IMG/VR virus record: IMGVR_UViG_2698536348_000004
Strand: one strand, 5' to 3'
DNA: 12,440 nucleotides
Source of the DNA: a virus
Lineage: Duplodnaviria > Heunggongvirae > Uroviricota > Caudoviricetes
Part shown: positions 8,485-8,545 of the stretch, piece by piece
How the letters are laid out: each line of letters begins with the position of its first letter
Numbering within the stretch: position 1 is the stretch's first letter
The notes under the pieces: model-generated
Told to the model about the DNA's origin: nothing
Seen by the model: the letters and a program-made list of their open reading frames with translations, nothing else
Databases searched by the model: none
Position numbers and translations under genes: made by a program

Positions 8485-8545
8485 TATGCGTGGAAACGCA
8501 TATGGCCTTAGTTGGTCAGATATATTGGGACTCGCTTTGTCAGCG
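8485..8545 (-). promoter_or_regulatory. Candidate nutR region (boxA-like element plus hairpin) between cro and cII
   Basis: Minus-strand read CTACGTCGCTGACAAAGCG (plus 8533-8545 core), repeated almost exactly upstream of N, followed 30 nt later by hairpin TATGCGT-TTCC-ACGCATA (plus 8485-8502). Confidence 0.4.

Follow-up and report, generated by a model that had tools for sequence, protein, structure and literature searches.

What is the near-identical 19-nt element that lies in both N-utilisation (nut) regions of the window, a 12,440-nt stretch of a Caudoviricetes virus (IMG/VR record IMGVR_UViG_2698536348_000004)? According to our analysis, the shared 19-mer is, with a probability of about 0.95, the boxB hairpin together with a short linker, as found in the nutL and nutR sites of an H-19B/933W-type lambdoid phage, and as such it has already been described. 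It is not a new kind of boxA.

A pattern search of the window returned exactly two copies, which are alike at 18 of 19 positions:

8551..8533, minus strand: nutR copy, CTACGTCGCTGACAAAGCG, between cro and cII
12040..12058, plus strand: nutL copy, CTACGGCGCTGACAAAGCG, between a pL-like promoter and the start of N (12225)

Each copy has the orientation of the transcript that runs through it, from pR or pL, respectively. The search thus bore out the earlier note, which had described an 18 of 19 match in the same transcript orientation in both nut regions. That note had also located the copies, with small errors in their limits: the nutL copy begins at 12040 rather than 12041, and the nutR copy reaches 8551 and was therefore cut by the interval 8485-8545. 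The window has the reverse orientation of the customary lambda map, and the surrounding features are as follows:

8446..8150, minus strand: cII
8812..8585, minus strand: cro
8891..9598, plus strand: cI
10523..11569, plus strand: stk
11947..11975, plus strand: pL-like promoter TTGATA-17-CATTAT, found by a consensus scan and aligning with the pL region of lambda and P22

An intrinsic-terminator-like hairpin followed by a T run is present after the stk operon (11735-11756, plus strand) and corresponds to tM as annotated in 933W.

The repeat by itself is moderately unlikely to arise by chance. While the 19-mer pattern did not occur twice in any of 200 shuffles, some pair of 19-mers with at most one mismatch, direct or inverted, was present in 5 of 200 mononucleotide shuffles of the window, which corresponds to odds of about 0.03. 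Placement and homology put the repeat beyond doubt.

The make-up of the element can be read from its structure. Each copy opens with the C that forms the last base of a spacer hairpin, continues with a UACG linker and ends in a boxB hairpin, of which it covers 14 of the 15 nt:

8532..8546, minus strand: nutR boxB, UCGCU-GACAA-AGCGA, 5-bp stem with a GACAA pentaloop
12045..12059, plus strand: nutL boxB, GCGCU-GACAA-AGCGC, 5-bp stem with a GACAA pentaloop
8547..8550, minus strand: nutR UACG linker, joining the spacer hairpin to boxB, read directly
12041..12044, plus strand: nutL UACG linker, the same four bases as at nutR, read directly

When folded alone, both boxB sequences form the structure (((((.....))))), with stem probabilities of 0.76-0.85 for nutR and 0.99 for nutL, and both copies have the stem of about 5 bp and the GNRA-like pentaloop that define a boxB. 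Rfam, scanned over the entire window at E <= 1, placed no family over either nut site; its only hits were a sub-threshold STnc100-like match and spurious snoRNA matches, both described below. From the pL-like promoter, the nutL boxB lies about 60-75 nt into the transcript.

The only mismatch between the two 19-mers (G in nutL, U in nutR) falls on the outermost 5' stem base of boxB, and the partner of this base, located one base outside the 19-mer, is C in nutL and A in nutR. The outermost pair is kept as a change from G-C to U-A, because the partner's change from C to A offsets the change from G to U. This compensation argues for selection on RNA pairing. Covariation of the boxB stem could be followed over four sites in all, namely nutL and nutR of the window and nutL and nutR of P22.

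The comparison with the published nut sites of H-19B and 933W, which had been proposed as a check, showed that the H-19B nutR oligos and the 933W nut annotations coincide with the sites in the window. Four H-19B nutR oligos, directed at boxA, the spacer, boxB and the sequence after boxB (Muteeb et al., supplement), are found exactly in the window, and the 933W nut annotations (AF125520; Plunkett et al.) both end at the last base of boxB:

8566-8589: oligo RS662, 'antisense to nutR boxA', exact match
8547-8568: oligo RS663, 'antisense to nutR spacer', exact match
8527-8550: oligo RS664, 'antisense to nutR boxB', exact match
8506-8531: H-19B oligo after boxB, exact match
8532..8577: 933W nutR annotation, ending at the last boxB base
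11993..12059: 933W nutL annotation, ending at the last boxB base

From boxA through the sequence after boxB, nutR is base for base equal to the H-19B oligos, and these oligos fix the order boxA, spacer, boxB at this site. At the nutR of H-19B, N together with NusA and NusG protects the spacer and boxB and leaves boxA unprotected, in work that also includes reporter assays (PMC3526286), and in vitro antitermination assays have been performed on the identical H-19B nutR sequence (PMC4499122). Positions 8100-12333 of the window are 99.8% identical to 933W, and this likeness extends to many Stx-converting phages. The H-19B/933W-type nut sites are thus already known, being annotated in GenBank and having served as an experimental model of N antitermination for more than 20 years.

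Upstream of boxB, the two sites are built from a spacer hairpin and, to a differing extent, a boxA-like sequence:

8551..8562, minus strand: nutR spacer hairpin GGAC-AUUC-GUCC, present in the MFE and centroid structures; its final C is the first base of the 19-mer
12025..12040, plus strand: nutL spacer hairpin GAUUC-GAAUAU-GAAUC, from folding; its final C is the first base of the 19-mer
8569..8577, minus strand: nutR boxA-like sequence CGCTATTTT, matching CGCTCTTTA, which is the boxA of P22, at 7 of 9 positions; the 933W nutR annotation begins at 8577
11993..12015, plus strand: 5' part of the 933W nutL annotation (start at 11993), consisting of CGCATTACT and the hairpin UCACC-AGGUC-GGUGA, the latter from folding

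At nutL, CGCATTACT (11993-12001, plus strand) matches the boxA consensus at only 4 of 9 positions. In an alignment with lambda and P22, the stretch 11993..12015 has its homologue in the initial ~30 nt of the lambda pL transcript and lies on the conserved leader ...CAGCAGGACGC..., upstream of the boxA of lambda and P22, while the nutL spacer hairpin fills the alignment columns of the lambda and P22 boxA. No convincing boxA was found at nutL when the region from pL to N was aligned for the window, lambda and P22, and on this alignment the nutL of H-19B/933W-type phages seems to be without a genuine boxA. The lack of a convincing boxA at nutL fits the work by Neely and Friedman from 2000, in which the N of H-19B is reported to act independently of boxA, NusB and S10.

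For H-19B, 'alternative NUT RNA structures' have been reported, and we sought to reproduce them by mutating the spacer hairpins in silico. Exchanging one arm (5' or 3') or both for the complement, or deleting the dyad, left the predicted probability of the boxB stem unchanged (at least 0.76 at nutR and 0.99 at nutL), with mutations that differ from the published H-19B ones.

The earlier note had been correct in placing the element in nutR and nutL, in positing an N specificity other than that of lambda, and in giving the distances to the adjacent hairpins as 6 nt at nutL and 30 nt at nutR. Its comparison of the element with boxA and its search for boxB in those hairpins did not hold up, as the element itself is boxB. 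The structures concerned are the following:

8485..8502, minus strand: hairpin UAUGCG-UUUCCA-CGCAUA, 30 nt past the nutR boxB, from folding; followed by CCUUUCAACUAG
12065-12080, plus strand: local hairpin CCAAAG-UGAA-CUUUGG, 6 nt past the nutL boxB, one arm of the N-leader helix
12065..12212, plus strand: N leader, in which 12065-12080 forms a long-range helix with ~12189-12212 just before the N Shine-Dalgarno sequence (MFE -61.7 kcal/mol, z = -3.55)

Neither adjacent hairpin is boxB. The hairpin at 8485-8502 has counterparts in lambda and P22 between boxB and cII/c1, and in relatives its variants retain the base pairing for the most part. This hairpin probably belongs to the Rho-dependent tR1 region, and the lambda hairpin at the equivalent place is the one that precedes the tR1 termination points. 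For H-19B, the nutR/tR1 region has been used as a Rho-dependent terminator (PMC3526286). On the left side, the P22 leader forms the same type of long-range helix on folding, and lambda, whose leader was compared by sequence only, shares CAAAG...CUUUGGGGUGUG at the N-leader position in the alignment. The N-leader helix of the window presumably corresponds to the N-leader stem of lambda that is processed by RNase III.

Alignment of the pL-to-N regions of the three phages places the element column for column on the boxB of lambda and P22, with flanks that are alike on both sides. The P22 boxB is the closest match. The hairpin GCGCTGACAAAGCGC, contained in the annotated P22 nutL, is identical to the nutL hairpin of the window at 15 of 15 positions, and the nutR of the window shares with the P22-type boxB (GCGCUGACAAAGCGC) the GACAA loop and four of five identical pairs. 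P22 and the window also agree in where the GACAA pentaloop lies downstream of pL, and in both a similar N-leader helix comes after boxB. The complex of the P22 N peptide with a boxB carrying the GACAA pentaloop is available as PDB 1A4T (PMC12550061). In contrast, the boxA of P22 (CGCTCTTTAA) follows the consensus, and the P22 spacer is 10 nt long and unstructured, where the window has a hairpin plus UACG, and the N proteins are alike only in the ARM motif and the C-terminal 30 residues. In the P22 nutR boxB, the GACAA loop is carried by another stem (ACCGC...GCGGU), with a C/C closing position.

Lambda (boxA CGCTCTTA, boxB GCCCUGAARAAGGGC) shows the same layout of promoter, boxA (in the window a boxA-like sequence at nutR), spacer and boxB, followed by the N leader on the left or the pre-cII hairpin on the right, and its flanks are homologous, with CAGCAGGACGC upstream and CAAAG...CUUUGGGGUGUG downstream. 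It differs in its loop (GAAAA/GAAGA versus GACAA here), in its stem sequence and in that it has no spacer hairpin. It is boxB and the arginine-rich motif (ARM) of N that determine N specificity, not boxA, and the differences from lambda in loop and stem point to a different N specificity.

In order to find diverse boxB stems, viral contigs were scanned for a consensus boxA followed by UGACAAA, which gave at least 120 matches. Among the matches listed, 88 were without a hairpin and are best read as chance, and 25 were P22-like nutL sites, one of them with a G-U variant.

A second view of the sites is offered by the close relatives, for which we considered 80 viral contigs or loci that encode N at 99-100% identity, comparing 79 copies of nutL and 73 of nutR. 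CUACG and boxB were invariant in all of them (79/79 and 73/73, respectively), and this within changing surroundings: the cro-end contexts ahead of nutR are of at least five kinds, and the pL-side contexts before nutL show a similar variety. The boxA of nutR varies among phages that share one and the same N, occurring as CGCTATTTT (the window), as CGCTCTTTT (many relatives; closer to consensus) and as CACTCTTTT, an A/C polymorphism. Variation in the leader and spacer hairpins is found in the loops, and in the nutL spacer in the loop only. The nutL of the window has CACCAGGTCGGTG and the sampled relatives mostly CACCAGGGCGGTG, a loop-base change. A nutR spacer variant, GGGC...GUCC, is present in 7 relatives, with the pairing kept as G-U. 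The boxB stem showed no covariation among the 80 loci, with N at 99-100% identity. Since the relatives are very close, the invariance of boxB is weak evidence of selection; taken together with that of CUACG, it would be supporting, not decisive, for the boxB reading.

The part of the element outside boxB, C-UACG, might serve as a further determinant of specificity that N and NusA recognise jointly. The invariance of CUACG in the 79 and 73 copies, its absence from the nut sites of P22 and lambda, and the published footprint over spacer and boxB are compatible with this idea, to which we give a low probability. If it were true, the N of H-19B/933W, which has an ARM unlike that of the P22 N, could tell its own nut sites from the nutL of P22 despite the identical 15-nt boxB.

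The model implied by the earlier note, in which the element is a divergent boxA serving as a loading site for NusB/NusE (S10) and boxB is the adjacent hairpin, is very improbable. It draws on the presence of the element in both nut regions and on its beginning with CGCT, like the boxA CGCTCTT(T)A; however, CGCT alone matches, and the remainder (GACAAAGCG) differs. The element is self-complementary and folds, whereas boxA is described as a single-stranded motif (PMC2800207). It also lies 3' of a far better nutR boxA (CGCTATTTT, or CGCTCTTTT in relatives), and both the order of the H-19B oligos and the alignment onto the boxB of lambda and P22 speak against it. Moreover, the counterparts of the adjacent hairpins in lambda and/or P22 stand beside boxB and do not replace it.

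Even less credence can be given to the element being a site that acts at the DNA level, such as an IHF site, or a recombination or module-junction sequence with no role in RNA. The two copies do form an inverted pair flanking the immunity region, where lambdoid modules exchange, and the contexts upstream of nutR and nutL vary among relatives. However, the compensatory change from G-C to U-A argues for pairing in RNA, and an RNA footprint has been published for the identical sequence (PMC3526286). As to IHF, which had been named as a possible unrelated site, the consensus WATCAANNNNTTR is absent at and near both copies and overlaps neither, the sole match in the window being at 4586-4598. That the repeat is a chance match or the remnant of a neutral duplication is just as negligible a prospect: some near-identical 19-mer pair did turn up in 5 of the 200 window shuffles, but here each copy is oriented with its transcript and occupies one of the two places where a nut site is expected, one of them is identical to the P22 boxB, both are annotated in 933W, the H-19B sequence has been used experimentally, the copies are invariant in relatives with other flanks, and the published function of the identical H-19B nutR contradicts it.

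Taking the element as boxB plus linker, we propose the following course of events. In the pR or pL transcript, boxB would fold into its 5-bp stem with the GACAA pentaloop, and the arginine-rich N terminus of the phage N would bind the loop. NusA would join on the spacer, and the complex of N and NusA would then be tethered to the elongating RNA polymerase by looping of the RNA. The tethered polymerase would read through downstream terminators, the first of which past nutR would be the Rho-dependent tR1. N binding and antitermination at the nutR of the window are carried over from the published, identical H-19B nutR and are thus to be understood as expected by analogy, and we infer that nutL would work like nutR.

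The N gene of the window itself is incomplete:

12225..12333, plus strand: first 36 codons of N (MTRRTQFKGNSRSRRRERLKAK...), a 100% match to the N of 933W up to 12333, cut at 12333/12334

The ARM of the encoded fragment, RSRRRER, is that published for H-19B, and the motif F-GN--(S/T)RR-ER is common to the N of the window and that of P22 (GNAKTRRHERRRKLA) in a direct alignment of the N termini; a BLASTP comparison of the N of 933W with that of P22 detected only the C-terminal domain and no significant N-terminal or ARM similarity. In H-19B, the N mutants R3H, S11F, R15C/P and R18P, in or near the ARM '12-RSRRRER', have lost antitermination at nutR/tR1 and are nut-binding mutants, and the central and C-terminal regions of N are those that bind NusA and RNA polymerase (PMC3526286). 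The window retains the ARM and is devoid of the central and C-terminal regions. As N is truncated and has no NusA- and RNA polymerase-binding regions, antitermination in cis is unlikely. The nut sites of this prophage are probably orphaned, with no working N in cis, and we infer that they are idle in cis.

The cause of the truncation lies directly at the break, where the terminal repeat of IS629/IS1203 starts at 12334, as identified through the annotations of F422 and E. coli. In 933W, by contrast, N is not cut after codon 36 by such an IS end. The closest record, Stx2a_F422, has the same IS end in the same orientation, 342 bp further on and downstream of an intact N, a comparison that suggests an IS-adjacent deletion or a separate insertion in the window. 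The junction of N and IS was found as one contiguous match in none of 5,426 complete E. coli genomes.

The other end of the window, that of late regulation, also departs from 933W. Positions 1-2238 are 98.5% identical to phage 2B8 and resemble phage 434 (lambda-type Q, TciB, SASA esterase), and as this part is not 933W-like, the prophage is mosaic, combining an early region of 933W type with another Q module. Within it, a stretch on the minus strand (152-357) gave a sub-threshold Rfam match to STnc100 (37.7 bits versus a gathering score of 47, E = 2.4e-5). At the end of this stretch is a strong hairpin that resembles a terminator and has a U run. The stretch lies downstream of the region annotated as antiterminator Q in 2B8 and could be the late operon's short pR'-tR' leader RNA. 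Elsewhere in the window, TCCCTC-type repeat units in the O gene (~7650-7770) correspond to the ori iterons annotated in 933W, and Rfam matches to snoRNAs at this place fall on these iterons and are spurious.

For the annotation of such phages, our results amount to two corrections: the conserved repeat is boxB plus linker and not boxA, and the adjacent hairpins belong to the pre-cII region and the N leader. Early antitermination leads to the expression of Q and, through it, to that of the late genes, which in Stx phages include the toxin. Because antitermination feeds Q and late expression in this way, the truncation of N is of greater consequence for this prophage's biology than the repeat itself.
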